Shown: positions 9,431 to 38,823 of the stretch, piece by piece
Layout: each line of letters starts with the position of its first letter
Numbering within the stretch: the stretch's first letter is position 1
Source: Octopus sinensis
Taxonomy: Eukaryota
DNA: 64,000 nucleotides
Assembly (NCBI RefSeq): GCF_006345805.1
Contig: NC_043004.1
Location: forward strand, 27,466,001 to 27,530,000
Reading direction: 5' to 3'
The notes under the pieces: model-generated
What the model was told of the DNA's origin: nothing
The model's input: the letters and a program-made list of their open reading frames with translations, nothing else
Databases searched by the model: none
Translations under genes and position numbers: made by a program

Positions 9431-9977
9431 TGCTCTGATGCAGTACCATGCACTGGCTTTCTGATCTTAACTGATAGGAAGTGTTATCATGTACTTGTTT
9501 TGTCTTAGAATAAAAGATGGGCTACAGCAAATATTCTGCTCAATACCACAGATTTGCTCGTCAGTTGTTTGAACTTAACCAGTTGAGCATGTCCCTTAGT
9601 GACTGACGATATGTGCATCTCTGATCACGAGCAGAAGTATTTGGGGAGCATCATAACCATGTGTTGAGAGGAATTCTTTGGGGCTTGAATAATTCACCTC
9701 TGGAAACATGGGTATTTTGTTCAATATTCTTAAACAACCCTTATTCAGGGATCTTTTGAGTGGAAAGGGCTACTTGCCCTGAAGAAAATTCTAACTGGGC
9801 CCCACCTGTAAAGTCATGTTCTGTTTATCTTGATTCAGAGTTCACCATGTCGCATGCATATGGTTGTGATGCATGTGTCTGGAGTACTATTATCAGATGG
9901 GTAGTCATGATGGGTGTACTGGGCTTCATATATTTTACGCCTGTGTCATGTTGATGGCATGCACTGCTCTCTCGCTC
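9431..9977 (+). mobile_element. ~550-bp (AAT)n-associated non-coding element, copy 1
   Basis: tgctctgatgcagtacc ... gcactgctctctc; (AAT)n on both sides; aligns by eye to 36854-37403. Confidence 0.85.
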
Positions 9978-10407
9978 ATTAATAATAATAATAATAATCC
10001 TTTCTACTGTAGATATAGTGACTGAAATTTGAAGGGAGGTTATGTTACATGATTACATCACCTGCAGTGATTAATCCTGAAAGAAGGAAAGGCAAAGCCA
10101 ACCTTGGTGGAATTTGAACTTTTTATATGGCACCAACATAGGTGCTTTTTACTTGGCACCAGCACCTGTGACCTTTCAGCTGAGAGAGAATGTGAAACTG
10201 AGAGTTTAAAGTTTGATAGAGGGGCAGAGGTAGCCCTCTTACTATCTAGGAGATAAGTTGCAACTTCAGTAGGATATAGAAGGAAAGGAAGGTAAGAGAG
10301 AGTTAGAGAGAGAAACAGAGAGACAACCAGAGTGAGATAGAGAGGGTCTGCCCACGGGGAACAGTGGGAGAGCAGTAAGTCACTAATAACAACAACAACA
10401 ACAACAA

Positions 10408-10670
10408 TATTTAAAGTGGGAAATACGGAGGTTGTGGTTAATGAAGAGAGCAGGCGTGATACCAACAGTAACTAGTGCACTTGGAAGTATCAGTACTCAA
10501 CTATCAACATGGCTGAAAAAGATTGGTGCAAGTGTGAAGGTAGAACACCTACAAAAATCAGCATTGCTTGGAACTGCAAGAATTCTTTGAAGCATGACCA
10601 GTAAACAAGTGTCACCTTAGTCAGCTGGCTGTGGACACCTAACACTTTCCATCATACTCAGCAAAATATG
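10408..10670 (+). mobile_element. R4/Dong 3' fragment (different subfamily)
   Basis: VIPTVTSALGSISTQLSTWLKKIG..LQKSALLGTARIL C-terminal motif, then AAT. Confidence 0.75.
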
Positions 10671-10675
10671 ATAAT

Positions 10676-10875
10676 AATTCTTTCTTTCTACAAGCAGAGG
10701 GCCTGAGATTTTGGGGGAGGGGTTTCATTGATTACATCGACTCCAAAGATCAACTGGCTCTGAAAGAATAACAAGCAAAGTGGGCCTCAGCAGAATTTGA
10801 ACTTAGAACCTAAGGGCAAATGAAATACCTCTAAGTATTTTGAGAAGGATTCTAACCATTCAACCAGTTAGCAGC
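10676..10875 (-). mobile_element. tRNA-derived SINE, (ATT)n-tail family
   Basis: Similar to 36601-36782; B-box-like gagttcaaattc on the - strand. Confidence 0.7.
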
Positions 10876-10919
10876 ATTTATAATAATGATGATGATGATG
10901 ATGATGATGATGATAATTA

Positions 10920-11458
10920 GCTCTGATGCAGTACCAGACAGTAGTTCTCATGGTTTCTGATCTTAACTGATCAGAAGTGTTATCATGTATGTTTTGTCTT
11001 GATGCAAAAGATGGGCTACAGAAAATATTTTGTTCAATGTCACAGATTTGCTTGTCAGTTGCTTGAGCATGTCCCTTAATAGCTGACAATATGTACATCT
11101 CTAGTCATGTGCAGGAGTAGGTGGGGGAGCATCATAGCTATGTGTCGAGAGGAATTCTTTGGAGTTTGACTAATTCACCCTTGCAAATCTGGGTGTTTTG
11201 TTCAACATCCTTAAACAACCCTTGTTCAGGAACCTTTTGAGCAGAATGGGCTACTTGACCTGAAGAAAATAGCAACTGGGCCCTACCTGAAAGATCATGC
11301 ACTGGTTATTTTCATATGAGATCACTATGTCATGCACATGTGGTTGTGATGCATGTGCCTAGTGTATTCTTATCAGACGGGGAGTCATATGGGGTATATT
11401 GAGTTTTTTATATTTGAACCCCAGTGTCACTTTGATGGCATGCATTGCTCTCTCATAC
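10920..11458 (+). mobile_element. ~550-bp (AAT)n-associated element, copy 2
   Basis: Same termini and internal blocks as the other copies; left flank is (ATG)n plus short AAT. Confidence 0.85.
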
Positions 11459-11522
<64 letters not shown>

Positions 11523-12689
11523 AAGTTACAACACACTAACATGGATTCTGATAATGAAGATATACACCTACATTTATGGTTCATTACATTTATTTCAAAA
11601 CTCACTCTTAATCCTATTTACAAACTGATGAAAAACGTTGTCTAAAAATTGTCAATACAATCATGTAAAACAATGGTTGGTGGATCCCCCACACCCACAT
11701 TCAAATTTGAAGCTGTATGCTGACAGTTTATGGCAAAACAGTAATTTAATATAAATTACCGTGCTATGGATTTGTAAAATTAAATACTCACTGTTTTTTC
11801 AGTACTGATGCACACTCACAAGTTCTCATGTACTTTTGCACTATGTTTGTGGTATTAAAAGGGTTTCCCCCACTCCCTCTCTCAAAATTAGAATAAGAGA
11901 TAAATCATTTACCTCTATTACAAAAATATTGAAGTCAAAGGCTACATAATTCAGCTCCATTCCCCTACCACCTGACTCATTGGTGCTCTATATAGATCTA
12001 TAAATATATTTATAATTGTGGAAATTTGCCATTCCTATCAGTATATTATACATTGGGTGTGAGCCAAAGAAGATGTTTCTCTATGGTTGATTGACTTACT
12101 AGAAATAGAAACCAAATATCATTTAGGCATACTGTAAAAAATGAAGGACATGTTGAATTATGCAGTTCTGGATAAATTGAGACTGAAAATAAATTGAGTA
12201 GTTGGAGCTGGAACTTACTTAATCAAGACTGACCTGCAAACTAAGCAACAACTGCATCAAATGTTATATTATACAGGCATATAACAATAATTTAAAGGTA
12301 TCTAAAATACACTTTCAAAAAGGAAATCATGTGTTTGCATATTAAAGAATTCGATAACACAAAGCTGCAGAAGAAAATATAGGAGGGAAAATGCTCAGAG
12401 AATCATTCCTTAAAATTACCAAATTGTGAAGAAAGATCAAAATTCAATTGCATTTTATATTTAGTCTAAATCTTAATTTTAAAAAACAAATAATTTTCAT
12501 GAATAAAATTAAATTTTTATTCAATAATTACTGTTCGATAAACAAAACAGAAATCTAAAATAAGCTGAAAAACTGATAATACAATATGTATATATGTTTG
12601 AACTATTTCTCTTTTTAATTTAGAGTAAATTTTGACTGTCCATCTACTTGATAGCAAGGTTGTGAAAGAAAGCTTGTTTTAACCATTAT

Positions 12690-13680
12690 CCTTTAATTCT
12701 TAAGAAGGGCTCACAGATTACCATTGTCCCAGATATTGTTATCTTTTATAGCATATGAATTTAGGTTTTGTGTTCTCACCCCAAGAACCCAAATTTAGCC
12801 ATACTTTGCTCCAGTTAGGTTGGTATGTACTCAGTTGCTTCAATAATAATAGGTATGAAGCTGAAAGTGTATCTTGGATTCTAGATATGTAAACTCCTTA
12901 TCAATGGTCCATAGATGACTTCTTTCTCTTGTATTTTTCAAACTATGTTTGTGTTCAGAGGGCAGCTGATTTCCACCACAGAACATATCTTTTCCTTCTG
13001 ATCCCACACAACAATATCTGGCTGGTTCTCATTCAACTATCAGGCTGTTTTAATTTCTAAGTTCCTCTAATGTTCTTTTGACCCATTGGTTTCAATGGAA
13101 TCAACTTTGCCTGTAGGTGTTTTCTTTTTTGCTTCCCTCTGGCCACCACCACATCATGCTCTGTGGGGAAATAATATCTGGACGACATTGCCTTGCATTT
13201 GGCAATAATGTGCTTGATGTCTTTAGTCTTGGTCTTACACATTCTATATTTGTTGCCTGTCAATGCTTTCTGCCTCTTGGTACTTGGTACTTGGTGGGGA
13301 TTTCTTGTTCTTGAATTGCATGGAAGTAACCGCCAAAGTGGGATGTCATAAACTTGCTAGTACATCATGCCAAGTACCCATGTATTATCTTCCCAGTGAC
13401 CCGGTCCATTTCTTTTTATTTTGTTCTTCTGATAAATAGATTTTATCAATGCTCCTTGGACAGAAAGCTTTATCAATTCTTATTTCATACAACTCATCAA
13501 GTTCACTAGCTATTCTAATTATATTATTGATTTCGTGGTCACACATCTGGATAAGATAGTAACTGATTTCTTTCCTCTGCTGCAGATATTGTTTCAGTGT
13601 CACAATACCTGCTTCCTATGACATCAATACAGATTTGAGGCTATGGTCACCAGCTTTGCATGAAAAGTATAGCCTGTCTC
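12690..13680 (-). mobile_element. R4/Dong-like fragment (zinc knuckle and RLE endonuclease), decayed
   Basis: YFHAIQEQEIPTKY, YRMCK..HIIAKC, NQPDIVVWD..VVEISCP motifs on the - strand. Confidence 0.75.
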
Positions 13681-13689
13681 TTTGAAGAT

Positions 13690-14052
13690 TTGGGTATGAG
13701 ATATGTGCATGCTGAGTTTGTGCCAAAACTGCATTCAGTTACAGTAGTTTTTTGCTAATCACAACATTCCATACATCCAATAACCACCAAATTCTCCAGA
13801 TCTCACCCCATGTGACTTTTTTTCTCATTCCAAAAGTTAAATCCCACTTGAATGGAACAAAATTTCCAGATGTTAAGAAAATCCATGAGAATGCAATAAG
13901 GCAGCTGTTTGCTGTCCTAAAAAAGGAAATGGCACCAGATTAAGTGTGTTGTTTTTGAAGGGGACTACTTTAAAGGAGATTAAATGCCAAATTGATATGT
14001 GTTGTAGCTTTCTCTTAACGGCACTAGTCCTGATACTATTTTATCAGCCTTT
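13690..14052 (+). mobile_element. Mariner internal-deletion remnant
   Basis: FVPKL..., SPDLTPCDFFLIPKVKSHLNG. Confidence 0.75.
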
Positions 14053-14132
14053 ATATATATATATATATGTATTTCGTTTTTGGATTTGGTTTGCAAGATT
14101 CTTTATGCTTTATGTGAGTTTGAGTGTTGAAG

Positions 14133-14254
14133 CATATTCTGCTATGTCTGGAGAGAGTCATTTTCTTTCTGTGCCTTATAATTTAACACACTTGAGTGTG
14201 TTAAAGTATAAGGCGCAGAAAGAAAATTACTCTCCCCAGACACAACAGAATATG
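14133..14254. repeat. ~60-bp-stem hairpin (fold-back) between microsatellites
   Basis: catattctg..ttttctttctgtgccttata..aacacac-ttga-gtgtgtt..tataaggcgcagaaagaaaa..cagaatatg. Confidence 0.9.
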
Positions 14255-14639
14255 TATATATATATATAGATTGATGGATGGATGGATGGATGGATAGATG
14301 GATGGATGGATGGATGGATGGATGGATGGATGGACGGATGGATGGATGTGTGAGTGTGTGTGAGAGATATATATTGAGAGAGAGTGTGTGCATGTTTACA
14401 AATGTGCATATATGATTGTTTGCATGCATGTGTCTTGTTATGGATGATTTGATAGATTTTCCTGTATACACATGTTCTTCAATAAGTGGTAATTTGTTTC
14501 ACAAAATCAGACATGTCCAGTCAAGTATCTCTGTCCAACCATACTAAACGACTTATACAAACATATCTAAATAGTCATAGAAACACATAAATATATCATT
14601 TATACATGTGTGTGTGTGTATGTACACTACATGTATATA

Positions 14640-15872
14640 TCAAGTCATCCCATAAATTCTGTTCAAATTTTGAATAAAGAAAACAAGTGACCAAATGTTA
14701 TATTTAATGAAATTTAATCATCAATGTACTTTCCCTGATTATCTATGACTTCCTTCCATCAATTTACAAGCTTTTTAATCCCACCAATGTAAAACTCTTA
14801 TGGTTTCAAAGCAAAGAACTCTGAAATGTCAGTTTTGACCTCTTCCTGGCCTGCGAAAGTTATGTCCCCCAAATGATTCTGTAAACTACAAAACAGATAG
14901 TGGTCTGAAGGAGCAAGGTTGGGAGAATAAGGTGGATGAGGAATTTTTTCCCAACCAAGCTCTTCGATCTTTTGTGATGTGATCTTTTCAGTGTGGGGTC
15001 GCACATTGTCCTAATGAAACATCACTCCTTTTCAATTCGCTAAAGCAGGTAGTTTTTTCTTCAAAGCTTGGTTTAAACACTCTAATTGCTGACAGTAGAC
15101 TTGAGCATTGATTGTTGCAGTAGGTGGTAACAATTCAAAGTGAATTACTCCTTTGCAATCCCACCAGAAAGAGAGAAGAACCTTTTCCCCATGAAGTTCT
15201 CTTCTCGGTTGTGGTTGAGCCTTTTCCCTTTTACCAAGCCACTATTTACAACATTTAACATTTCAATAAAAGATCCATTTTTCATCAGCAGTCACAAGTC
15301 TATCCAAAAAGGATGAAATGAGTTCATGAGAATGGAGAGAAGAGCAGATGTCAACTTGGGATTGCAGTTGCTTTCGGACAATTCATGAGTCACCCATTTT
15401 CCAAGTTGTTCAAGATGACAATGAACAGATGTATGGTTTGAACTAAGCTTTAATGCCAGTTCTTCAACTGATAATGCAGGATTTTCTTCAAGTATTACCT
15501 CAAGGAGCTTATCATTACACTCAACTGGACATCCTGTTCAATCTTCATCTTCAAGCCTGAAATCTCCACTTCTGAGTTTTGCAAACCATCTTCTGCAAGT
15601 TCTTTCATTCAAGCATTCTTTCCCATAAACTGAGTGTATGTTTCGAGTTGCTTCAGTTGCAGAGTTACCTTCTTTGTACTCATAAAGCATTATGTGCCTC
15701 AAATGCTCTTTGGATACTTCCAAAGAAATTCTGTAAAATAATATTCAATTAGTTTAAATGTACACAAATGCATAAAAATAATTTTAAATTCCATTAGACA
15801 TTCTAAATTACTATTAAATTTCATTCAATTTTAAAAAAGTTAAAATCGGACAGAATTTATGGGATGACCTGA
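14640..15872 (-). mobile_element. Full-length mariner (DD34D) with disrupted transposase
   Basis: TA-flanked TIRs (tcaagtcatcccataaattctg / cagaatttatgggatgacctga); MEVSKEHLRH..., GKWVTHEL, HPPYSPNLAPSD motifs. Confidence 0.92.
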
Positions 15873-16171
15873 TACATACATATATATATATATAAACATA
15901 CACACAAGTGTGTGCATATATGTATATACATGTACTGTACATGTATATATATATATATACATATATGTAGACATATACATATATAATTAATTTTAGGATT
16001 CATTTGAATCAAGGTATTATAAAAGCAAGGACTCCAAGTTATAGTTGAGATTAGGGTAGCCATGTTTGTACTTAATACTGACGATATCAGTTTATTCATC
16101 AATAAAAAAACATGTTTGAGTTCTAGTGAACCATAACCTATTTGTGTTCTCTCCCACTCTCTCTCTTTCTT

Positions 16172-16209
<38 letters not shown>

Positions 16210-16335
16210 ATCTAAAATAATCTATATATATATAATCTAAAATAAGCTGAAAAACTGATAATACAATATGTATATATGTTTGAACTATTTCTCTTTTTAA
16301 TTTAGATGAATTTAGAGTAAATTTTGACTGTCCAT

Positions 16336-16762
16336 CTACTTATGAAGACTTTGGTTTTAGCTAGGTTGACTCTAAAGCCCTTTGATTCTAATCTTTGCTT
16401 CCACACCTGAAACTTTTCCTCTAGTTCTGATAGAGACTCAGCAATTAGAGCAAGGTGATCAGCATAGAGGAGTTCCCAGGGGCATCCTGTCTTGAATTTC
16501 TTTGTTATTGCTTGGAGGACTATGATGAGTAAGAGGGGGCTGAGGTCCGATCCTTGGTGGACCCCTACTCGGAATTCTTCACTATACTTATTGAGAACCC
16601 TCACCCTACTGACAGCATCCCTGTACATGGCTTGCACAGCTCTCACTAATCATTCATCTATCCCTAGTTTCCTCATTGACCACCAGATAAGGGATCAGGG
16701 GACCCTGTCAAAAGTTTTCTCCATGTCAACGAAAGCCAGGTACAGAGGTTTATCTTTCGCTA
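16336..16762 (-). mobile_element. RTE-clade reverse transcriptase fragment
   Basis: FVDMEKTFDRVP, GVHQGSDLSPLL, ELLYADHL (YADD motif), VNLAKTK. Confidence 0.9.
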
Positions 16763-16954
16763 GGTCTGTGTATGCACACATACACAGGTAACAGGTATAT
16801 GAATATATATGTACATATATATTTTGATACTTGTATATAAGTAAATACATACATATATATGTGTATGTGTGTGTGTATGCCACTATATATGTATGTAAAT
16901 ACATTTTAACATATGAATATATATGTTTGTATATTTATATAAAGAGAGTGAGAG

Positions 16955-17080
16955 TGACAGATAGACAGATAGACAAACAGACTGACAGACAGATCGATAT
17001 AGAGAGATATATAGATAGACAGACAGATAGACAGATAGACAGACAGACGGATAGATAGATAGACAGACAGAAAGACAGAC

Positions 17081-17135
<55 letters not shown>

Positions 17136-17140
17136 CAGAC
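16955..17140. repeat. (GATA/GACA)n microsatellite
   Basis: Directly visible. Confidence 0.95.
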
Positions 17141-17429
17141 AAAAATACGTTTCAAAATTTCAGCTATATTTACTGCGCGTTTCACATAGATGAATTTGCA
17201 GCACTTACTATTGTAAACAGCCAAATCAACTAAGCATAAACCTTCAAAGATTCTATAGATTCCATCTTTTATATTTTGCCACCTATCTCATTTCAATTGT
17301 TTTGTTCACAAAACTAATTTGCTTATTGTCAATTCCTTCAATCTCAATACATTTGTATTTTCTCATTTTCCTCTTAAATTCTTGGAGATTCTTTTTGTCT
17401 TATTTTCCACCATAAACTAATTAATTTTG

Positions 17430-17469
17430 CATATATATACATATGTATACACGTACATACATATATGTA

Positions 17470-17502
<33 letters not shown>

Positions 17503-17503
17503 T

Positions 17504-17547
<44 letters not shown>

Positions 17548-17621
17548 TATATATATATGAATATATATATGTATATGTATATATATATATGTATATGTAT
17601 ATATATATATATGTGTGTATG

Positions 17622-17671
<50 letters not shown>

Positions 17672-17850
17672 TATATATGTACATATATATTATATATACA
17701 TATATATATATTTGTATATATATATATTCATTTATATAATATATATATATATATATTTATATATATAATATATGTATGTGTATGTATGTACGTGTATATA
17801 TATATATACACACACTTACACATACACAGACACACACAGACACACATGTG
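17430..17850. repeat. Long imperfect (TA)n tract; similar tracts at ~1480-1790, 22760-22980, 42210-42635, 44390-44515, 44870-45005, 45755-46008
   Basis: Directly visible. Confidence 0.95.
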
Positions 17851-18444
17851 AAGTTTGTTTTTCGCTCCTAAACATTTTCTCAAAATTGTCTTCTTATTGA
17901 ATTCGTTTAACTGTATTGTTCACCACCTTCTCTCTATCAGATGACTACAAGAACAGCATTGAACTGACTGGCTGCTGGTTTCTATTGTAATCTCTAAAAC
18001 AGGAAGAAATGGTCTTTTTCTTTTCAGTTTGACCTCAACTTAAGGTCTTTTCATTCAGCTCTGTTTCTGTGCATATATATATGTCTATTAATACTAGTGC
18101 ATGTATGTGTTATTTCACACATAAATTTAGAATCTACGCATATCATTTCCTTTTACTGTTATCAGCCATCTGGTTCTGACCATGCTGGGGCACTGCCATT
18201 ACCTTATTTCAGCTGAATCTCAGTATTTAAGGATGGTAAGAGTTTGGTCCTGCCATAATGTAGGTTCTCTTGCGGAAATGTAAGTTTGTCAGAGTTGACT
18301 GAGATCTCTGGTGATACAGTAGTACAGGCATTACAAAGGGAATATTTCAGAGATAGTCTTTCTGTACTTCTTTTCATTTTGGCACTGAATCTATTATGGT
18401 TAATTGCTAGTATCTTGAACTGCCACAAATATCAATGTAACTTA

Positions 18445-19135
18445 TAATTTCTCTGTAGACGACCTGAAGATTTATGCTAAAAGTGTTAACAATTCCAAAA
18501 AACAACTGGAAGTAATAACATTTTCAGCTGAATTTGGCCAAAAGAAATGTTCATATTTGGTTATAGAACAAGGAAAGTCAGTCCCCCAAATCCAAAACCT
18601 GTACATCAACGCTCTCTTTATCTCCCCCATTCCACACAAAGAATGTTATAAGTACCTAGGCACAGACGAAAATGTATCATACGAAGGCACTGTGAATGAA
18701 GATAGTGTGACCTGAGAATATTACACAAGACTTAGGAAAATATGACAGTTGGAACTCTCCTCTTACAACAAAACAATATCCCACAATGCATTTGTTGTAC
18801 CAGTGCCAATCCCAACATTTGGGATATTTGATTGGTCTGTTGAAGAAATCCACTCCATTGATATCAAAACCTGCAAAATCCTGACAACAACTGGGAACTT
18901 CCACAAAAACAGTGACGTTGACAGGCTCTAGCTAAGAAGAAATGAAGGTGGTAGAGGCGTGAGATCAGTGCAGACAGCCTTTGAATGCTGAATGGTATGA
19001 CTCAGGTAGCACCTGCTAAACAACAGTAGCAAAAATAAGCATATTAATGCAGTCCTGAAAAGTGAAGTGAGCAACATTGTACGAGTTGGCAGTGAACTCC
19101 TCAAGAAACACTCTCTTCCTGATGATCTCCTATAC
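18445..19135 (+). mobile_element. R4/Dong-like RT fragment
   Basis: VDDLKIYA, FGQKKC, YKYLG, DVDRL..R.EGGRG motifs. Confidence 0.8.
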
Positions 19136-19265
19136 AAATGTGAATTTGCTTGTGTTAACTACATCCCATAGATGGAGCCTTGTATCTTTGTTGGAAACTG
19201 GCCCCTTCCTCAGTGACAGATTTATAATAATTAAAAAAATAGAAGAGAGAGAGAGAGAGAGAGAG

Positions 19266-19300
<35 letters not shown>

Positions 19301-19375
19301 CAAACACACACACACAACACACACACACACACACATATATATAGACATAAATACATACACAGATACTGTTTAGAT

Positions 19376-19667
19376 CTGTGCTTCACAACCAGGGTCTATA
19401 TGACCATTATAAACCTTGGAGTGGGGGGGGCATATAACCCTTAGGGGTCCATATAAGGTTTTGCTGTTAAAAATTTATGTGCAATAATTGGATTATATTT
19501 CTACAATGCACTAAATATTTTAACAATTTTTTTTTTATATACTTCCTCATGGCATTTAATTATAAAGATAAAACAGAATTTTTTAACTATCAAGTCACTA
19601 TAAGGGTCCACCCAAGTAAAAGATGAATTAAAGGGGTCCAGAGGTAAAAAATGTTTGAAAACTACTG
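19376..19667. mobile_element. hAT/Charlie-like MITE
   Basis: Imperfect TIRs ctgtgcttcacaacc / gtttgaaaactactg; 8-bp target duplication gtttagat/gtttacat. Confidence 0.75.
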
Positions 19668-19888
19668 GTTTACATAAAGAAATGCATGTCTCTCTCTCTC
19701 TCTCTCTCTCTCATCATCATCGTTTAACATCCGTTTTCCGCGCTAGCACGGGTTCATATATATATATATATCACTATCATAGAATGATGATGATGACATA
19801 TATATACACAGAAAGAAACTTATGCCTTTGTTTATCTAAACACTATCTGTATGTGTGTGTGCATATATATATATATATAATATATATA

Positions 19889-20170
19889 CGTGATCAATAA
19901 GTATCCGGATTGTTACTGTAGTAACGAACCTAAGCTAAGGCATGCAGAGTAAAGCTGCTTAGCAAAGATTGACCTTGAACTCTGCTGTGCACTGCACTAA
20001 GTTTTAACATTCTAGCTTACTTCTGTTTACAGCACAGCTTGGAAGGAACATGTGTAGCATGTGATCATCGCATTGACTGTGACAGAGAAAGTTGAGCAGA
20101 GAATCTGCATCAAATTTTGCCAAAGTCTTGGTGATACCTGCTCAGAGACCTACACAAAGCTTTCAAAACT
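19889..20170 (+). mobile_element. Mariner 5' fragment
   Basis: TIR followed by EQRICIKFC..G.T.SETY transposase N-terminus. Confidence 0.8.
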
Positions 20171-20184
20171 TTTTCATTGTTTCA

Positions 20185-20400
20185 TGTGTGTGTATATATT
20201 TGTGTGTCTGTGTCTGTCTCCCTCCATCACTTGGCAACCGATGCTGGTGTGTTTACATCCCCATAACTTAGCGGTTTGGCAAAACAGACTGATAGAATAA
20301 GTACTAGGCTTAGAAAGAATAAGTCCTGGAGTCGATTTGCTCGAATAAAGGTGGTGCTCCAACATGGCCACAGTCAAATGACTGAAACAAGTAAAAGAGA
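20185..20400 (+). mobile_element. SINE 3' half (family of 21955-22380)
   Basis: caaccgatgctggtgtg...gactgaaacaagtaaaaga tail. Confidence 0.85.

Positions 20401-21005: not shown

Positions 21006-21009
<4 letters not shown>
20401..21009 (-). mobile_element. Mariner 5' half, same family as 19889, inverted
   Basis: HVSTKFVPKLL on the - strand; its 5' UTR is the reverse complement of 19889-20050. Confidence 0.8.
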
Positions 21010-21053
<44 letters not shown>

Positions 21054-21479: not shown

Positions 21480-21498
21480 TATATATATAGTTTATATC

Positions 21499-22514: not shown

Positions 22515-22525
22515 TGTATATATAT

Positions 22526-26500: not shown

Positions 26501-26547
26501 TACAGTTAGGTCAAGCATATACCAGGTTATATATATATATATATATT

Positions 26548-27690: not shown

Positions 27691-27850
27691 TATGTATGTA
27701 TGTATGTATGTATGTGTATGTATGTATGTATGTGTATGTATGTATGCATGCATGCATGCATGCATGTATGTATGTATGTATGAATGTATGTATGTATGTA
27801 TGTATGCATGCATGCATGTATGTATGTATGTATGCATGCATGCATGTATG

Positions 27851-27884
<34 letters not shown>

Positions 27885-28369
27885 TTTCAGTTTGTGAAGC
27901 TTCAAACTTTTGTTACAGTGATGTAAGAATTTTTTCATATTGTACTTTTATGCAAAAAGAAATTAAAAATGAAATTAGAATTTTAATTAAGAGAGGAAGA
28001 ACACAAATGACTGTGCCATATCTCTCATTCTTTCTACTTTAAACATTTAGGAAATCACAAGTATTTGGTTCAATTCATTTGGATAATTTCCTCTGCTAAA
28101 CCTTATCCATAATTTCCTCCCCACAGCATCATGTTTCTCCTCATATCTCCCATGCTTTTTTTCAAACTTTTTCTTTTTGTCTCAGCTTCATCATCCTACC
28201 ACTTAATTTCTTATAAATCTTACCATTTTCTCCTGTTTTTTTTTCTTGTCTTTTGCTCCAAGTATGACTTACTTCTCTAAGAAAACCCAATAGTATTCAA
28301 TGTTCCCAAATCTCTTTGTTCCCCTCCCCTTCTCTGTCCTTTTCTTTATCCATTTCTCTATTTCTGTCT

Positions 28370-28401
<32 letters not shown>

Positions 28402-29278
28402 ATTTCTGTTTCTTTCTCTCTTCTTTTCTGTCTATCTCTCTCTATATATATCTGTCTCTTTTTCCCCTCTCTCTCCAACTATCCAGCTAACAACTTTCAT
28501 ATATCTCTCTCCTTCTTTTTCTCTATCTCTCTAAATATCTCTTTCCATATCTTCATGCATAAATACATAAGTCTGAAGATTTTAAAACTCAGATATAAAG
28601 TAATTTAATAAATTATTTTATCATTTTAGTATTTTGTGAAAACTAAATTGTATTTTATGATTTTTCAACAAAATAAATGTGACCTAATATTCAAAATTTT
28701 TTTAATATTTTAATATTTTCTTGATTTGATCCAATTTTGCTTCTTTGTTAATTACCATTTCTCATAGAACCTATGGGAAAATAAAAAATCATGTGAATTC
28801 CTAAATTCTTAACCTGAAGAAATATTGAAGGACAAGAATAGGACCATTCCACCATTTTGAATTATGATTCTATACATTGCTAACCGAATAGCTTATCTTA
28901 TATTTCTTGCCTTTTTCTTACTATTCCTTCCCATTCTTTTGTGCCTGCTTTCTTTCTGTCTTCTGTTTGGATTCCTGGTTACAACAAGGAATAATACAGT
29001 GAAATATGCTGCTAGTGTACCAAATGTAACAATATGGAACGTTTCATGTATGGTCTCCAACTATTATTGTTGTTGTTATGATTGTTGTTATGGTTACTGT
29101 TGAAGTTGTTATATTCTTTTTTTTTTCATAATGGATGTGGTTGTTGTTATTGTTAGCTGATTTGAGATGAATATGTTCAAACAAATTTGTGACACTAATG
29201 GTGTTAATTGCAGATTTAGAATATGAAAAGACTTAAGACAATGTGTAAGAATGTGAAACAGTGTGTAAATATTTGAGT

Positions 29279-29606
29279 GAGGGTGCGTGGCTTAGTGGTT
29301 AGGGCATTCGGCTCATGATCGTAAGGTTGTGAGTTCGATTCCCGGCGACGCATTGTGTCCTTGAGCAAGACACTTTATTTCACGTTGCTCCAGTCCACTC
29401 AGCTGGCAAAAATGAGTTGTACTTGTATTTCAAAGGGTCAGCCTTGTCACTCTCTGTGTCACGCTGATTATCCCCGAGAACTATGTTAAGGGTACACGTG
29501 TCTGTGGAATGCTCAGCCATTTGCACGTTAATTTCACGAGCAAGCTGTTCCGTTGATCGTATCAGCTGGGACCCTCGTCGTCGTAACTGGCGGAGTAGAA
29601 GAGAGC
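29279..29606 (+). mobile_element. Full tRNA-derived SINE
   Basis: A-box tggcttagtgg, B-box gagttcgattccc; 11-bp target duplication aaatatttgag. Confidence 0.92.
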
Positions 29607-30107
29607 AAATATTTGAGGAGTTGTTTGAGGAGATTTAACGAGTTTCAGCAGCTTGAGATACAACAGTGTCAAATCTCTCATGAGTTTTAAGAAGATAACT
29701 CACTGTTTTGAGAATGTCTTCCATTGGTCCAAGAAGATATTTTACTGTTTAAAGAAATCAGTTCATTTGTTCCAGAAGATAGCACACTGCTTTGAAATGT
29801 CCCTTCATTTGTCAGAAAATAAAGATGAAGATGAAATTAATCTTTAAGAAGACAGTACTAAATCGAATGTAAAAAGGATTAAAGACTCAGACATAATGAT
29901 GCTGTGGTATCAGGCTAAAGAGGAGAAGGATGAGGAGATCGGAGTAAAGAGGATGAAGATGAAGAAATCAAGGTACAAAGGATGTGGAAGGCTAGATAAG
30001 GCTAAAGAAGAAGTAGACTATTTGATTTAGGTAAAGAACAATCAATTAATTAGTACACAAAATTTCCACATCAACAGTGACATAGAAGCTTTATCATTCA
30101 TTTCCAA

Positions 30108-30430
30108 TCATCATCATCATCATCATCATCGTTTAATGTCCGTTTTCCGCGCTAGCACGGGTTGGACGGTTCGACCGGGGTCTGGGAAGCCAGGAGCTGC
30201 TCCAGGCTCTAGTCTGATCTGGCAGAGTTTCTACGGCTGGATGCCCTTCCTAACGCCAATATTCTGTAAAAACACATCAGACTATGGGGGAATATTAATT
30301 TGCTTAGAAACAGGTGGGGTTGATAGTAGGATGGGAATCCAGCCCTAGAAAAGCTGCCTCAGTAAAATTCTATCCAACCCATACAAGCATGGGAAAGTAG
30401 ACATTAATTAAAACAATGATGATAATGATG
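30108..30430. mobile_element. RTE-related short element fragments in opposite orientations
   Basis: (CAT)n + cgtttaatgtccgttttcc (- strand), then ccaacccatacaagcatgg..(TGA) (+ strand). Confidence 0.65.
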
Positions 30431-30453
30431 GATATATGTGTGTGTGTGTGTGA

Positions 30454-30755
30454 AGGCACGTGGCTTTGTGGTTGAGGTGCTGCACTTGCAATTGTGAGCT
30501 CATGGGCTTGATTCCCAGACTGGGCTTGATTCCCAGACTGCATTGTGTTCTTGAGCAAAACACTTCATTTCATGTTGCTTTGCGATCATTTCAACATCTG
30601 ACATGTGGTACCCATTGCACCTATACAGGTAATGTCGATCTGATGGAGGGAGTGAGCTTATGTCTACACAAACATTCGATCACTATAAACAAATCCTCTG
30701 TGTGGTTGTTCAGTAAGAAATTGTTGAACCCTCATACATCATCTAACGACAGGTG
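30454..30755 (+). mobile_element. tRNA-derived SINE variant
   Basis: tRNA-like head with duplicated tgggcttgattcccagac; gtgttcttgagcaaaacactt body. Confidence 0.7.
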
Positions 30756-30776
30756 AATCCATTATATATATATATA

Positions 30777-31048
30777 GGTTGTGGTGAATAAATTGTCTTC
30801 TAAATTATGCAAAAAATGAAAATAACACTGACATCTCATTTTAACAGATATATTTACCAAATCTGTATAAAAATATCTTGAAATACTAAAGAGTAAATTT
30901 ATTCAATAAAATTACAATTGGCTTCAATGTCCTCCAGACAACTCTTTGGAACACTCTCACTTGCAACTTTTTGGAACAGTCTCCTTGTTTAAGTTGGTGA
31001 ATGTTGCCATAATCCTAATTCTTGCCTTCAGTTCATCTTTGGTGTTAT
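30777..31048 (-). mobile_element. maT-like transposon 3' fragment
   Basis: Reverse complement NTKDELKARI..; related to the 5204-6432 and 59435 C-termini. Confidence 0.5.
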
Positions 31049-31647
31049 ATAAGATAAAATATCCTGTATGTACCTACTTAAGCTAGGCATCCATTTTTAG
31101 CTACCCCTACTGACCACTGAACTGAATTTTCTTTCTGACCACACTCAACCTAGAATTCATCCATTAAATTAATAGACATAAATGCCTTCCTCCTCCACTT
31201 TACCAAAACCTTAATACCTGACCTCTCACCCCGAACCGACCATCACGAAGAATAATACTGGCATCTTATCTTTATGTTTTGATTTTATTTTACTTTGGCT
31301 CTCATTCATTTCCCACTGCTATCCCATCCCTTTCTTTTCTCTCTTCCATTGACTCTTTCACAACCCATATCTGTCTATCACGATGTCTGCCTTTCTCACT
31401 CTATATACCCACGTAGACCTTTTCATACAAGCTAACCACTTAATTCTATTCCTTCAACATGAATGCAACATTCAAAATACTGCCAAAATACTGCCTGGAT
31501 TTACCTGGGATTATACCAACCTCCATACCCTCTGGAAGAAGATGAGCTGTGAACTTTATTCTCCTATCTGTATAATTTTATCTACTGGTTTACTCTTTAA
31601 TTCTTCTGTCAACGAATTTCCCTGCCTAGATCTTACATACATACCTT

Positions 31648-31723
31648 GTCCCTGATGACAGAATATCCAGTGTACGGACATGCCAGTCTATCACTCAGAA
31701 TATTCCAGAAACAGCTGTAAGAC
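31648..31723 (+). ncRNA. Type-I hammerhead motif in a Penelope-like terminal repeat (~31050-31812)
   Basis: gtcc CTGATGA [gaatat..cagtg/cact..atattc] GAA ACAGCTGT A agac; palindromic stem III. Confidence 0.75.
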
Positions 31724-33380
31724 TTCAAATTTACCTTACCTTAATTAAATATTCTCAATTACTTGAGATACCTGTCTTTCCTTGGTTTTTGTTGTCTTTT
31801 TTCCTCTTATACAAATATATATATATATATATATATATATGCATGTGTGTGTGTACTCGCAAACATAGCATTCTAGACATTATTGTATTGATAAAACATG
31901 TTTACACACACATTTTTTCTATAACAGTGAACTTTAAAATAGTTAATATCAATTCTGTTTATAAAAGACAGAGTTACAACGATCTTAGAATGCTGCTGCA
32001 CATGGAATATACAAGCAGTGAGTATTGCAGAGGCTGTGAATAGATGGCACACTATTTATAATTAGACTTTCTAACTCTTTGCTTGACTTATAATGAATCT
32101 AATATGTAAAATATTTGATTGTAAGCCACTTCAAGTTCAAAAATCAGTCAATGGAAAACAGCTGGACACGGGGATGAGATGATAGTCCATCAGAGATAAA
32201 CTTCCTTGAAATCCTTCTGCCTATTCCTAACAGCTATGTAGATTACAGCACTTGTGTTGCAGTATTAAATGCATGCAAATTCTTCATACTATTTCATATT
32301 GTGTTGTGTGTTTGCTACATCATCTACACAATTAAAATCTTCCCTACACATGGACATAAATATATCACTGTTAAAATATACCAGAAATCTGATATGTATT
32401 CGTCAGACTGTTAAGTGAAATAAAGATTGCTAAAATAATAATGTTCTTCCTGGGAGATTCAACAGAATCCTTGTGACAATGAAATATTTGAAGATTCATG
32501 AGTTGGTTGTCCAAAATTATATGAAAATAGTTTTTGGAGATCACACAAAAGCACTTAACAGCCGATATATTAAACAGTGGAAATATTAATGAGAAACGTG
32601 CAGAAGATTTATAAATACTTAATGAGAATAACTTTACGAAAATGTAATTAATTTTCATTACATATTATATAGATTTTTAGTATTGGTTTTAGTTTTCTTC
32701 AAAGATTATGGAGTTGAAAATCTCTTTTATTTTTAAGCAAATTACTTTACTCAAAACATTAAATATACAAACATATGCACAAATAAAATCAAACTTCAGT
32801 AATATATATATATGTTTGAGTATGAATGAGTGTGTGTGTGTGTGTGTGTGTGTGAATGAGTGGTATCTCACTGTGTTTGCAGATTTATTTGAGATATATG
32901 TTCCAAAAATGGTTGGCACTGTAAGACATTTTTTCATCTGCTTTCAACAATATGTATCTATGTGTGTGTGTATGTGTGTGTAGTGAGAAAGACAGAGAGG
33001 AAGAGCAAAATGCAGAGACAGACAGAGAGATTGAAAGATGCATATATATATATATACATACATATATATATATGTATATATATATATATAATTGAGAATG
33101 CATGTGTTTGTGTGTGTGTGTGCATATGTGTGTGTCTGTCTGTCTATGTGTCTGTATGTGTGCATCACTAAAACTCAAGAACTACCCAACCAATTTCATT
33201 CAAGTCTTACACATACTCTACTGAGGGTCCATGGAGTGTCATGGACTAAAAAAACTTCTTGCCTAATGCAAGCCCAGAGCAATCTCTTAGACTGTTTTGG
33301 TATTACATGCCAAAAGTGAAACAATAGTTTCAGTTTTAATAGTTTCACTATAAATACTATCACTATATATATAATATATA

Positions 33381-34193
33381 CTAGCTTAAGGTGACCCGCT
33401 CTACGTGCGGTTAAGAGTGTGGTTGTTACTTTCTGTTGCTTCCTTTCTGGTTTTTTATCACCACATTCTCCCTCTTTGTTTCTCTATCCTTTCTCTCTCA
33501 CTTTCCCACTCTCTTACTCTTCCTTTCTCTCGGACTCTCCCTCACTTTCTCTTACTCTTTATCTTTCTCTATCTATCTCTCTCCCATTTATAAACAACAA
33601 AAGATCTTGAGTAAGTTGAGAAAGGAAATATTTTGAAAGATCAATCATAAATATCAGGCAGAGACAACTAAAGGTCTGCTTCAAGGCAGACAGCAAAACA
33701 CTAACATTTAAAAGGGACAAAGTTTGAAGGGATAGAATCTGAGGATAATAGAGTCACCATGGCTGGCATTTCTTAACGACGGACATCAACGTAGTGGCAG
33801 TTTAATGGCTGGCGTAAAGTTTTTAACTTGATGTAAGAGAAAATTCCTGAACACCAAGTTTTGAAGTGATTCTTTCTCATGACAGTAGACTCACCAATGC
33901 AAACGTTCAAAACTTCTTCATGATGGATGGCAGCACATTGAAGATTTAAAGGCTGGCGCAAAATTTTTAGCTTGATGTAACAGAGAATTCCTAAACACCT
34001 GCTCCTGTAAATTTTTATCTCCTTCCAGTTCCATTTAGACCCCTTTTCACATTTTCGTTAATATAACCCGATTTCATTGGGGTCTACTCGGGTCACATTT
34101 TATAAGATGAGGAATTTAGTCCTAGAGGTCCCGCCTTTCATTTGAGGAAAAAAATAGTTGCTATGCAAACTCGCCAGCACTTTTAACATAGGT
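33381..34193 (-). mobile_element. Non-autonomous Helitron-like element
   Basis: 3' end on the - strand: ccgc-acgtaga-gcgg hairpin then ..CTAG|T; internal direct repeat at ~33805/33945; 5' boundary uncertain. Confidence 0.55.
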
Positions 34194-34333
34194 GCGCATA
34201 TTTTCAGCTCAACTGACCACATAATGCACACATTATATATATATATATATATACACATTAAATATATATATGTACATATATACGCATTATATATATGTGT
34301 GTGTACGCATTATATATACAAATGTATACTAAT

Positions 34334-34373
<40 letters not shown>

Positions 34374-34489
34374 TAATATGGGCCCAGGAATAGGGAGTGC
34401 AGCGGGGGCACCTGCACCCCTTGGAATTTTCAGGTGGTGCAAGATCAAAATTTGCACCCCCTACATAATTTAACCAGTTTCAGAAATTA

Positions 34490-34928
34490 GGGCTACAGCA
34501 AATATTGTACTCAACACCACAGAATTGCTTGTCAGTTGTTTGACCTTCACTAGTTGAGCATGGATTTGGTGACTGATGATATGTGCATCTCTGATCATGA
34601 GGATAGCCATGTGCTGAGAGGAATTCTTTGGGGTTTGAATAATTCACCCCTGGAAACATAGATGCTTTGTTCATTATCCTTAAATAAACCTTATTCAGGG
34701 ACCTTTTGAGCTGGATGTGCTATTCAACCTGAAAAAATTCTAACTGGGCTCCACCTGCAAGGTCATGTACTGTATATCTTGATTATGAGATCACCATGTT
34801 GTGCAACATATGGTTGTGATGCATGTGCCTGGTGTACCCTTATCAGATGGGTAGTCATGGTTGATATACTGGGCTTCATATATTTGTACCCCAGTGTCAC
34901 TTTGATGGTATGCACTGCTCTCTCACTC
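34490..34928 (+). mobile_element. ~550-bp element, copy 3 (left end missing)
   Basis: Starts at gggctacagcaaat; right end ctctctcactc+(AAT)n intact. Confidence 0.85.
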
Positions 34929-34971
34929 AATAATAATAATAATAATAATGATGATGATCATAATAATAATG

Positions 34972-35017
<46 letters not shown>

Positions 35018-35018
<1 letters not shown>

Positions 35019-35728
35019 GTATCTCAACAGGCACGATAGAGCTGCACAATATATTCACTGGGTAATCTGTAAAAACCTGGAGTTGCCCCATGAGAAAAAC
35101 TGGTGGGAACACAAACCACCCCCAGTGCTTGAAAATGACCACATCTCACTCCTCTGGAACTTCACCATTCAAACTGACAGGAAGATAGATGCAAATAGGC
35201 CAGACATCATATTGAAAGACTTCAAACAAAGAACATGCCTCCTCATTGATATGACTGTCCCAATCGATAAAACGTATCTGTCAGGACCTACCAAAAACTG
35301 AGCAAATATAAAGATCTTGAAATAGAAATCAGCAAAATGTGGAAGCTGAAGACTAAAACAATACCTGTTGTCATAGGTGCCCTGGGAATGATAGCAAAAG
35401 GGGCTGATAGCTACCTAACTCAGATACCAGGAAACCCCAAAATGGCAGAAGTTCAAAAGATAGTGCTCATGGGAACTGCTCATATCCTACGCAAAATACT
35501 CTCTATGTAACCTCAAGGTTTAAAACAACCATAATTTTCGGTTTAAAAAAAAAAAAAAAAAAAAAACTTTTTTTAGACATCATTAGTACAACATCCCCCC
35601 CCCCAAAATATATGGCACACTAGGCATAACAACAACATGAACTTCCAACCCTGTTGTCTTGAGGTCTCTGGGTGAGACTTGGAGCCAACTTGTACAAATA
35701 TAAAGCAAAAGTCAAACATGAATAGAAT
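35018..35728 (+). mobile_element. 5'-truncated R4/Dong element (RLE endonuclease and 3' UTR)
   Basis: YLNRHD..WNFTIQTDRKIDANRPDIIL..IDMTVP..KYKDL..IPVVIGALG; (AAT)n on both sides. Confidence 0.92.
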
Positions 35729-35733
35729 TAATA

Positions 35734-35788
<55 letters not shown>

Positions 35789-35789
<1 letters not shown>

Positions 35790-36333
35790 GCCCTGATGCA
35801 GTACCAGGCAGTGTGTCTCATGGCATCTGATCTCAACTGGATTGGAAGTGTTATCATGTACATGTTTTTGTCTTGATATAAAAGATGGGCTACAGCAAAT
35901 ATTCTGCTCAATACACAGATTGCTTGGTAGTTGTTTGACCATAACCTGTTGACCATGTCCCTGAGTGGCTGACGATATGTGCATCTCTGATCACGAGAGA
36001 GTAGTGGCCGTGTGTTGAAAGGAATTCTTTGGGGTTTGGATAATTCTCCATTGGAAACATGGGTGTTTCGTTCAATATCCTTAAACAAGCCTTATTCAGC
36101 GACCTTTTGAGCGGATGGGCTACTCGACCTGAAGAAAATTCTAACTGAGCCCCATCTGTAAGGTCATGCGCTTTGTTTATCTTGATATGAGATCACTATT
36201 TCGCGCACATATAGTTGTGATGTATGTGCCTGGTGTACCCTTATCAGACGGGTAGTCATGATGAGTATACTGGGCTTCATAGTTTTTTTTTTACCACAGT
36301 ATTACTTTGATGGCATGCACTGCTCTCTCACTC
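35789..36333 (+). mobile_element. ~550-bp element, copy 4
   Basis: Both termini present within (AAT)n. Confidence 0.88.
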
Positions 36334-36367
36334 AATAATAATAATGATGATGATGATAATAATAATC

Positions 36368-36409
<42 letters not shown>

Positions 36410-36438
36410 TAATAATAATGATAATAATGATGATGATG

Positions 36439-36493
<55 letters not shown>

Positions 36494-36510
36494 TAATAAT
36501 GATGATGATG

Positions 36511-36567
<57 letters not shown>

Positions 36568-36601
36568 TTGATAATAATAATAATAATAATGATAATAATA
36601 A
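36334..36601. repeat. ~270-bp (AAT/GAT)n microsatellite
   Basis: Directly visible. Confidence 0.97.
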
Positions 36602-36782
36602 TCCTTTCTGCTATAGGCACAAGGCCTGAAATTTTGGGGGAGGGGCCAGTCGAGTAGATCGACTCCAGTACGCAACTGGTACTTAATTTATTGACCCCGA
36701 AAGGATGAAAATCAAAGCCGACCTCGGCGGAATTTGAACTCAGAACGTAGCATCAGACGAAACCACCGCTAAGCATCTTGCT
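36601..36782 (-). mobile_element. tRNA-derived SINE with (ATT)n tail; further copies at 37495-37705 (-) and 49366-49548 (+)
   Basis: Reverse complement: gagttcaaattccgccgaggtc..ttcatcctttcggggtc..aagtaccag..gccttgtgcctatagcagaaaggatt(att)n. Confidence 0.85.
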
Positions 36783-36792
36783 AATAATAATA

Positions 36793-36831
<39 letters not shown>

Positions 36832-36853
36832 TAATAATAATAATAATAATAAA

Positions 36854-37403
36854 TGCCCTGATTCAGTACCAGGCAGTGGCTCTCATGGCTTCTGAGCTTA
36901 ACGATTGGAAGTGTATCATTACATTGTTTTGTCTTGGTATAAAAGATGGGCTACAGCAAATATTCTGCTCAATACCACAGATTTGCTTGTCAGTTGTTTG
37001 ACCATAACCAGTTGAGCATGTCCATTAGTAGCTAATGATATGTGAATCTCTGATCACGAGCAGAAGTAGTGGGGGAGCATCATAGCCATGTGTTGAGAGG
37101 GATTCTTTAGGGTTTGAATAATTCACCTCTGGAAACATGGGTGGTTCTTTCAACATCCTTAAACAACCCTTATTCAGGGACTTTTGAGCAGGATGGGCTA
37201 CTCAACCTGAAGAAAATTCTAACTGGGGCCCACTGCAAGGTCATGTGCTGTTTATTTTGATATGAGATCATCATGCCGCGCACATATGGTTGTGATGCAT
37301 GTGCCTGGTGTACCCTTATCAGACGGGTAGTCATGATGGGTATACTGGGCTTCGTATATTTTACCCCAGTGTCACTTTGATGGCATGCACTGCTCTCTCA
37401 CTC
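36854..37403 (+). mobile_element. ~550-bp element, copy 5 (reference copy)
   Basis: 550 bp from tgccctgattcagtacc to gctctctcactc; (AAT)n on both sides. Confidence 0.9.
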
Positions 37404-37452
<49 letters not shown>

Positions 37453-37724
37453 TTAATAATGGTCGTGATGATGATGATGATGATGATGAGGATGATCCAT
37501 TCTACTATAGGCACAAGGCCCGAAATTTGAGGGAAGGGGATAGTCGATTATATTGACCCCAGTGTTTCACTGGTACTTAATTTATCAACCCTGAAAGGAT
37601 GAAAAGCAAAGCTGACCTAGGTAGAATTTGAACACAGAACATAGTGGCAGATGAAATGCCACTAAGCATTTCACCTGACATGCTAATGATTCTGCTAATC
37701 TCACAGACAATAATAATAATAATA

Positions 37725-38018
37725 GGAGACCAGAGAAGCGAGATTGCTAAGATGTGGCAGCTATGAGAGTTGAACATAAAGGGTATCCCTATTTTCATCA
37801 GAGCATTGAGTTTGATACCACCCAACCTGAAAAAACATCTGAAAACCTTAGAGCTACCCTACAATCTAGATGTATTGCAAACGTTGGCATTACTTGGAAC
37901 CACACACATTGTGCAAAGTATTGTCTGTCTGAGGTCCTTGTGACTTAACAGACAGTACAAACCCCCAGTAGGCACAATATCTACAATCAACAACCTCACC
38001 GTATACTGTGCAATATCT
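37725..38018 (+). mobile_element. R4/Dong 3' fragment, another subfamily
   Basis: LRSEIAKMWQL..; LQTLALLGTTH; followed by (AAT)n. Confidence 0.65.
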
Positions 38019-38040
38019 ATAATAATAATAATAATAGTAA

Positions 38041-38096
<56 letters not shown>

Positions 38097-38109
38097 TGAT
38101 AATAATAAA

Positions 38110-38438
38110 TACCCTGATGCAGTACCAGGCAGTGGCTCTCGTGGCTTCTGATCTTAACTGATTGGAAGTGTTATCATGTACATTGTTTTGTCTTGGTATA
38201 AAAGATGGGCTACACTTTTGAGCGGGATGGGTTACTCGACCAGAAGAAAATTCTAACTGGACCCCACCTGTAAGGTCATGTGCTATTTATCTTGATATGA
38301 GACCACCATGTCGTGCACATATGGTTGTGATGCATGTGCCTAGTATACCCTTATCAGACGGGTAGTCATGATGGGTTTACTGGGCTTCATATATTTTACC
38401 CCAGTATCACTTTGATGGCATGCATTGCTCTCTCACTC

Positions 38439-38479
<41 letters not shown>

Positions 38480-38823
38480 TAATAATAATAAATACCCTGA
38501 TGCAGTACCAGGCAGTGGCTCTCATGGCTTCTGTTCTTAACTGATTGGAAGTGTTATCATGTACATTGTTTTCAGTCTTGGTATAAAAGATGGGCTACAC
38601 TTTTGAGCGGGATGGGTTACTCGACCAGAAGAAAATTCTAACTGGGTCCCACCTGTAAGGTCATGTGCTATTTATCTTGATATAAGACCACCATGTCGTG
38701 TACATATGGTTGTGATGCATGTGCCTAGTGTACCCTTATCAGACGGGTAGTCACGATGGGTTTACTGGGCTTCGTATATTTTACCCCAGTGTCACTTTGA
38801 TGGCATGCATTGCTCTCTCACTC
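38110..38823 (+). mobile_element. Two tandem internally deleted copies of the 550-bp element (38110-38438, 38493-38823)
   Basis: Both carry the junction gggctaca|cttttgagc and start with taccctgatg. Confidence 0.9.

Follow-up and report, generated by a model that had tools for sequence, protein, structure and literature searches.

An (AAT)n-specific, high-copy retroposon of Octopus sinensis as a probable passenger of Dong LINEs

A 64,000-nucleotide stretch of the Octopus sinensis genome (assembly GCF_006345805.1, contig NC_043004.1, positions 27,466,001 to 27,530,000 of the forward strand; hereafter the window, with positions counted from its first letter) carries seven copies of a short repeat family lying in or beside (AAT)n tracts. 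We call this family E and represent it by a 555-bp consensus scripted from 30 genomic loci. We infer that E is non-autonomous, a retroposon whose reverse transcription starts at the right end and is carried out by the protein of a Dong long interspersed element (LINE) of the R4 clade, and we give this reading a probability of roughly 78%. The original prediction, made from the letters of the window, had spoken of a target-specific, non-tRNA passenger of Dong resembling a short interspersed element (SINE); a SINE control, truncation polarity, junction register, 5′ duplications and an empty site all support that description.

All seven copies were confirmed, on the + strand and co-oriented with (AAT)n. 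The description of a ~550-bp element applies to the four that are near full length: 9431..9977 (89% identical to the family consensus, (AAT)n on both sides), 10920..11458 (83.5%, the oldest E copy of the window), 35789..36333 (88%) and 36854..37403 (96.4%), the last two being copies E1 and E2 of a re-copied composite. One of the other three is truncated and two are internally deleted. The truncated copy (34490..34928, E positions 98–555) has indeed lost its left end, the first 97 bases, as had been reported, but it abuts non-AAT sequence and is no clean 5′ truncation; it is weak evidence and cannot carry the polarity argument, which other genomic copies do. The copies at 38110..38438 and 38493..38823 have in common a 226-base internal deletion (E positions 106–331) and are 96.8% identical over 434 bp in self-comparison; being a tandem duplicate, they are not independent. 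The termini, described as fixed in the original prediction, proved consensus-like, with an exact 17-mer in one of the seven copies and an exact 12-mer in five. Each copy has a Dong fragment no more than about 350 bp away, in agreement with the prediction, and a SINE separates copy 36854 from its nearest one. This abundant co-resident SINE (36593..36781, partial, − strand, its sense strand set by eye from A/B-box-like motifs) served as a non-targeting control. It lies in a cluster of (AAT)n tracts at 34929..39891, a common target where copies of E, Dong and the SINE have accumulated. The best 40 matches to the oldest window copy included no distinct old E subfamily.

Genome-wide abundance was estimated from an unbiased sample of eighty 10-kb stretches at round coordinates, amounting to 800 kb of the 2.7-Gb genome. 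Eleven E matches were found, two of which were dropped as another family, a miniature inverted-repeat transposable element (MITE), and the remaining nine per 800 kb correspond to about 30,600 copies (95% range 14,000–58,100), or roughly 0.3–0.5% of the genome. Exact matches to the terminal patterns of E numbered 6,192 for the right-end 28-mer and 5,371 for the left-end 27-mer, with none for the reversed controls; these counts are hard floors, far beyond chance. AAT-type tracts flanked both sides of five of the nine unbiased copies and at least one side of seven (15-base flanking window), compared with 7 and 22, respectively, of 136 control SINE copies (18-base flanking window). Tracts of five or more units occupy 3,297 of the 800,000 sampled bases (0.4%). 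E is (AAT)n-specific, and the co-resident SINE is not.

Many sequences matching E outside (AAT)n, an outcome that the original prediction had named as fatal, were found in part and harmlessly, because they consist only of a 170-bp middle piece of E inside a separate family with terminal inverted repeats (TIRs). That family is the ~495-bp MITE, which has imperfect ~100-bp TIRs and TA-like flanks outside AAT (L046:4809-5305, L080, L106-L114) and contains E 102–271 (36952..37121 in the window). At least 40 copies exist, and two occurrences in 800 kb point to about 7,000 genome-wide, with a wide range. The E-derived piece is about 96% identical to the E consensus, and the MITE copies lie 5–9% from their own consensus (10 aligned). 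Since the oldest window E copy (10920) has three variants in common with the MITE-borne fragment, the comparison favours, without proving that direction, capture of the piece by the MITE from an older E. The common piece might instead mark E itself as a solo long terminal repeat or a DNA-transposon derivative, all the more as E starts with TG and ends with CA given one target A. Such an origin is extremely improbable, and largely refuted, by the lack of TIRs, by one-sided truncation and 5′ duplication, by tandem E pairs that, in the copies inspected, have AAT alone between them and enclose no coding region, and by the MITE having its own termini and holding only E 102–271.

Truncation polarity was scored by eye on contig C1, from the first 40 matches to the right end and, for the left end, from 41 of the first 52 (the other 11, already among the copies analysed, are full length). 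Among the right-anchored copies the left end was intact in 25, truncated straight into the tract in 12 and truncated into other sequence in three. The left-anchored copies retained an intact right end in 37 cases, were cut by other sequence in three and inverted in one (locus L257); none of the 41 was right-truncated into AAT. The tabulation of flanks and polarity that had been proposed as a check on the element thus yields 12/40 left-truncated against 0/41 right-truncated into AAT (Fisher p = 7.9e-5, or 6.9e-4 counting the inverted L257), and an earlier mixed set of 92 copies gave nine and zero. Dong elements are truncated in the same direction, in 12 versus 0 of 20 pieces for Dong-A and 7 versus 0 of 22 for Dong-D.

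The junctions of E agree with those of Dong as well. The right junction reads AATAAT in 42 of 47 copies, the register seen behind the 3′ ends of Dong-A and Dong-D. Tandem duplications of the first 18–240 bases were read by eye at the left end of 10 of about 65 left-intact copies, and no duplication longer than 4 nt occurred among 77 right ends. Where a duplication restarts, 1–3 A residues are added but in no case a complete AAT run, so the template begins at a set point immediately ahead of TGCCC. A left-end tandem duplication is also present in one of eight Dong-D 5′ ends, where the strand is set by the open reading frame (ORF). In folding comparisons with shuffled sequence the + strand gave z −3.85 and the − strand z +0.94 (L006, z −3.50), so that only the + strand of E folds better than shuffles. 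From truncation polarity, 5′ duplications, AAT register and + strand folding taken together we conclude that + is the RNA strand and that E moves by target-primed reverse transcription; the strand, which the original prediction had left open, is now closed. Two related observations concern the 5′ ends themselves: those of Dong-D (L084-L093) differ by a few purines, and in one of them the first ~23 bases are tandemly duplicated six times; and a region of C1 (G000:C1:68851374-68852158) holds nine or more exact occurrences of the E 5′ 27-mer at short intervals, probably an extreme 5′-duplication run or a derived minisatellite.

A composite of the form E1–AAT–SINE–AAT–E2 (35789..37403) recurs in the genome with variable left ends and one right end. 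It is found on C15 and C2, shortened by left truncation on C8857 and C16, and as E2 alone on C21. Window copy 36854 has 15 substitutions, of which 11–13 recur at each of the five distant loci and 0–4 in unrelated copies, and all five loci stop at the E right end, after which their flanks differ; the C2 composite includes 170 bases of an upstream Dong 3′ untranslated region (UTR). The E right end thus acts as the end at which long transcripts begun upstream are primed. Efficient self-cleavage at the 5′ end of E2 would not be expected to give such composites, unless variants of E2 disable it; the read-through copies have the G10T/T43G variant. An empty site was recovered at L265, which agrees with its paralogs L263/L004 in tract and downstream flank and lacks E2. 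Strand-specific structure, uniform length and a defined 5′ start would also fit retrocopies of a conserved cellular structured RNA, picked up by Dong and too diverged for Rfam, but copies of E beget copies with common variants, as in a self-propagating family, and no tRNA, 5S likeness or Rfam match beyond two chance hits was found; we consider this origin very improbable.

The searches behind that statement covered several classes of element. A tRNA origin was rejected (no Rfam match; ARAGORN found 0 genes in 4/4 loci), and Rfam searched with E up to an E-value of 10 returned the two chance hits, at E-values of 4–8. A 5S origin, suspected by eye, was rejected by comparison with the genome's own 5S gene, for which 444 of 500 shuffles scored as high. 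A coding remnant was likewise rejected, with no Pfam match in six frames and a best blastx E-value to Dong-A of 1.4. The predicted absence of TIRs, A/B boxes and ORF was borne out: none of 10 inverted pairs joins both termini, RNA polymerase III (Pol III) A/B boxes had no exact match on either strand (scattered two-mismatch hits only), and the Pfam result was as just given. Three T4 runs occur on the + strand. A hammerhead core scan gave 0 hits on both strands of E and detected the control unit in L028. For a hepatitis delta virus (HDV)-like fold, the strict descriptor gave 0 hits in E and the relaxed scan equalled shuffles (20/40), the local Dong 5′ ends also being negative in a scan that lacked a positive control; Rfam returned chance hits only for the Dong-A 5′ end. 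E has the SINE features of 555 bp length, non-coding sequence, high copy number and 5′ truncations. It works like a SINE or like a short internally deleted element (SIDE), and on the tested features it belongs to neither. The SIDE analogy drawn by the original prediction holds for target site and junction variation, which are as in Dong, and is not borne out by sequence for the ends, which match neither the 13 sampled Dong 3′ UTRs nor the 5′ UTRs of Dong-A and Dong-D.

Another enzyme, either the RTE/CR1-type partner of the co-resident SINE or a Penelope-like one, could conceivably have brought E into AAT tracts through tail-target annealing or AT preference. E has no tail sequence in common with Dong, and other short elements occur in these tracts, one of them with a hammerhead core. 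We nevertheless judge this distinctly unlikely: the control SINE is not AAT-specific (7/136 with tracts on both sides), the hammerhead core found in the L028 unit is absent from E, the orientation, register and polarity of E equal those of Dong, and Dong supplies the only coding families among the clustered tract-adjacent 3′ ends. The hammerhead-bearing repeat itself (L009, L028:2575-2720, L026, L057) has a tRNA-like head, an internal (AAT)n tract into which E inserts and the downstream hammerhead core; it is possibly a Penelope-dependent SINE.

Full-length Dong-A (4.9 kb) and Dong-D (4.0 kb) were recovered from the genome with AAT on both sides. The name Dong rests on features, namely a single ORF, a reverse transcriptase, a C-terminal CCHC motif and PD..D in translation, and AAT insertion. 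Dong-A has an intact 1,192-aa frame with RVT_1 (E-value 1e-27) and zf-RVT by Pfam, and two of its copies (L031 and L032) are 99% identical; the youngest E copies are 99–100% identical to their consensus. Dong fragments on the + strand of the window include the following: a piece with 3′ UTR that is related to Dong-A but older and runs into an AAT tract at its end (8052..9197); the C-terminus and 3′ UTR of family B1 (10411..10670); a young 5′-truncated Dong-A, 98% identical to the full-length L035, whose AAT tail contains E1 (35017..35737); the C-terminus and 3′ UTR of family C (37724..38019); a 5′-truncated, internally deleted Dong-A with CCHC and PD..D endonuclease region, 3′ UTR and AAT tail (38948..39829); and a family G fragment (40074..40603). 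By eye, the 5′ UTRs of L035 Dong-A and L087 Dong-D each have a splice-donor-like motif about 110–140 nt from the 5′ end, and Dong-A adds a pyrimidine tract and AG close to where its ORF begins, which with the donor-like motif may represent a retained 5′ UTR intron. A further LINE, family J (window 18434–18961; L095-L102), is older, related to Dong by protein, and has copies 86–89% identical; it was rejected as a partner, being not AAT-tailed and without likeness to E.

Dong sampling covered the 3′ UTRs of 13 families and the 5′ UTRs of Dong-A and Dong-D. The right end of E had been predicted to be unlike the Dong 3′ UTRs, and none of the 13 resembles it. E could still be a SIDE-like, internally deleted derivative of an unsampled or decayed Dong family whose UTRs form its ends, an explanation that is compatible with mobilisation by Dong and differs in origin. 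Its target, register and 5′ junction behaviour are as in Dong, there is a weak stem-loop likeness, and 5′ UTRs are known for only two of at least 13 Dong families. A genome-wide exact pattern placing the Dong ORF end within 200 bases of the E 3′ motif gave seven hits. One of them, L175, fuses a Dong ORF end with no AAT spacer to a diverged 3′ part of E. The UTR of this single locus starts like that of Dong-A, and a chimera made by deletion is the best reading of it. The other six are ordinary Dong tails followed by an AAT spacer and a truncated E. The pattern allowed zero mismatches and 200 nt at most, and a decayed parent could therefore be missed. Loose ends in contigs revealed no LINE joined to the 3′ part of E, leading to the MITE instead. 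With none of the sampled 3′ UTRs alike and L175 a lone chimera, a SIDE-like origin seems unlikely to us.

The Dong families have a 3′ structure of their own. A hexamer and a 5-bp stem-loop lie 58–74 nt before the tail in the 3′ UTRs of ten families (alignment A2), with 80% of cells paired and 15 showing a double change (0/500 shuffles; slid controls 30–50% paired). Examples in the window are at 35652–35686, 39760–39794 and 40569–40603, and a model of the stem-loop finds the last of these, in the held-out family G, at 13.1 bits. The stem-loop is likely a protein-recognition signal.

Several observations weigh against mobilisation by Dong. Two borderline right-truncations (L052 and L072) touch short AAT runs, and L257, in which E 1–154 lies between (ATT)n tracts in the orientation opposite to the usual one, stands as an unexplained exception to the polarity. 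The proposed alignment of the E termini to full-length Dong UTRs, run on Dong-A and Dong-D, gave no match above shuffles at either end, and nhmmer gave no link of E to other sampled DNA. No partner family was singled out, and on this point the original prediction stands where it was. A candidate 3′ recognition stem-loop of E (CCCCAG plus a 5-bp stem, 37364..37385) is weakly Dong-like: the Dong stem-loop model run on both strands of E has its best site at the right end, at only 6.6 bits (E-value 0.33), and the non-targeting control SINE scores 7.4 bits on the same model. A descriptor of the E stem-loop gave P of about 0.018, having been chosen after the likeness was seen; a profile and a position weight matrix of the Dong motif miss E (143/150 shuffles as high), and the motif starts 40 nt from the tail in E versus 58–74 nt in Dong. 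We treat this likeness as a weak lead and not as a result.

In the mechanism we propose, a Dong protein would bind the + strand RNA of E near its 3′ end, possibly at the CCCCAG stem-loop, nick the ATT strand of a tract and prime reverse transcription there. An early stop of the enzyme would leave a 5′ truncation, and a jump back onto the template would leave a 5′ duplication. The RNA is most likely made by RNA polymerase II (Pol II), starting 1–3 A before TGCCC or reading through from upstream, and its usual 5′ end may be set by an internal promoter, our preferred guess at slightly better than even odds, or by self-cleavage.

Published systems, cited here by accession for the portions of text available, offer partial parallels. 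Dong is known to target TAA repeats (PMC3812793, PMC7998251), and in B. mori an HDV-like ribozyme lets Dong cut itself at the 5′ junction (PMC3774820). E is like Dong in target, strand, 3′ register, truncation polarity and 5′ duplication, and differs from it in having no ORF; the HDV-like fold was found neither in E nor in two local Dong 5′ ends. The LINE EhLINE1 of Entamoeba histolytica is placed in the R4 clade. Its passenger EhSINE1, the nearest analogue of E, is 500–600 bp long with no ORF and no identified small-RNA precursor (PMC2996970), and EhLINE1 has a restriction-like endonuclease (PMC1635306). E agrees with EhSINE1 in size and in the lack of an ORF and of a small-RNA head, and Dong and EhLINE1 both have the restriction-like endonuclease. 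However, EhSINE1 has about 70 bp of 3′ end in common with EhLINE1 and no fixed target (PMC2996970, PMC1635306, PMC2657916), whereas E has no detectable common tail and is (AAT)n-specific; EhSINE1 numbers hundreds of copies (PMC2657916), E tens of thousands.

The R2 SIDEs and R2/R1 hybrid SIDEs of Drosophila are, like E, non-autonomous and target-specific, and their partner was identified from the target site and from variation at the junctions (PMC3414825). SIDEs keep the LINE 5′ ribozyme and the LINE 3′ end (PMC3414825), neither of which E shows by sequence or descriptor, and they are rare and confined to ribosomal DNA, unlike E. The bipartite non-autonomous LINEs RIME, NARTc, Vingi-N and Bov-A resemble E in being short, ORF-less, probably transcribed by Pol II and LINE-dependent. 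Elements of this type are defined by the ends of a parent LINE and, in the available text, are reported only for RTE, Ingi, Vingi and R2 (PMC5786205), whereas E is without an identified parent and its inferred partner clade is R4/Dong. The mollusc and cephalopod tRNA-derived SINEs OR2, Ceph-SINE, MESC and Vhc are, as E is, short and of high copy number with simple-repeat tails (PMC4758252), but E lacks a tRNA head and A/B boxes and is set apart from them by their descriptions.

In a recent octopus annotation, five Dong-R4 families are given as recently active and 893 SINE families as unclassified (PMC13282606), and E may therefore be deposited there unnamed; for one octopus species no sign of recent Dong activity was reported in the available text (PMC9115989). 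E is not described in the available portions of PMC8967140 and PMC4758252. The literature searched, mostly without subscription papers and Repbase Reports, contained no description of E or of a Dong-dependent SINE, a result that does not show absence from print. E is likely present in existing repeat libraries as an unclassified consensus, which lowers the novelty of the sequence and not that of the mechanism. That no high-copy, microsatellite-targeting passenger of Dong was described before E, and that E borrows no sequence, mimics the stem-loop in structure only and sets its 5′ end by a structured RNA module of its own, of a kind not yet described, is a tentative and somewhat doubtful proposal.

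Elsewhere in the window, an open frame at 2636–3115 resembles by eye an apurinic/apyrimidinic (APE)-type endonuclease fragment of an RTE-like LINE, with no Pfam match. Self-comparison revealed long inverted repeats or palindromic elements at 43502–44311, at 52459–53715 with 59877–61071, and at 63487–63744, which are probably DNA transposons.

Passengers of restriction-like-endonuclease (RLE) LINEs are few (the EhSINEs and R2 SIDEs), and each keeps some sequence of its partner. E seems to have spread via Dong to tens of thousands of copies without a tail sequence in common and would thereby offer a natural test of how Dong recognises RNA, a question that the Dong 3′ stem-loop, with its double changes across ten families, makes directly testable and that matters for inserting genes at specific sites with RLE proteins. 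For the octopus genome, E would explain the growth of AAT clusters, and it illustrates how sequence can pass between a retroposon and a MITE.

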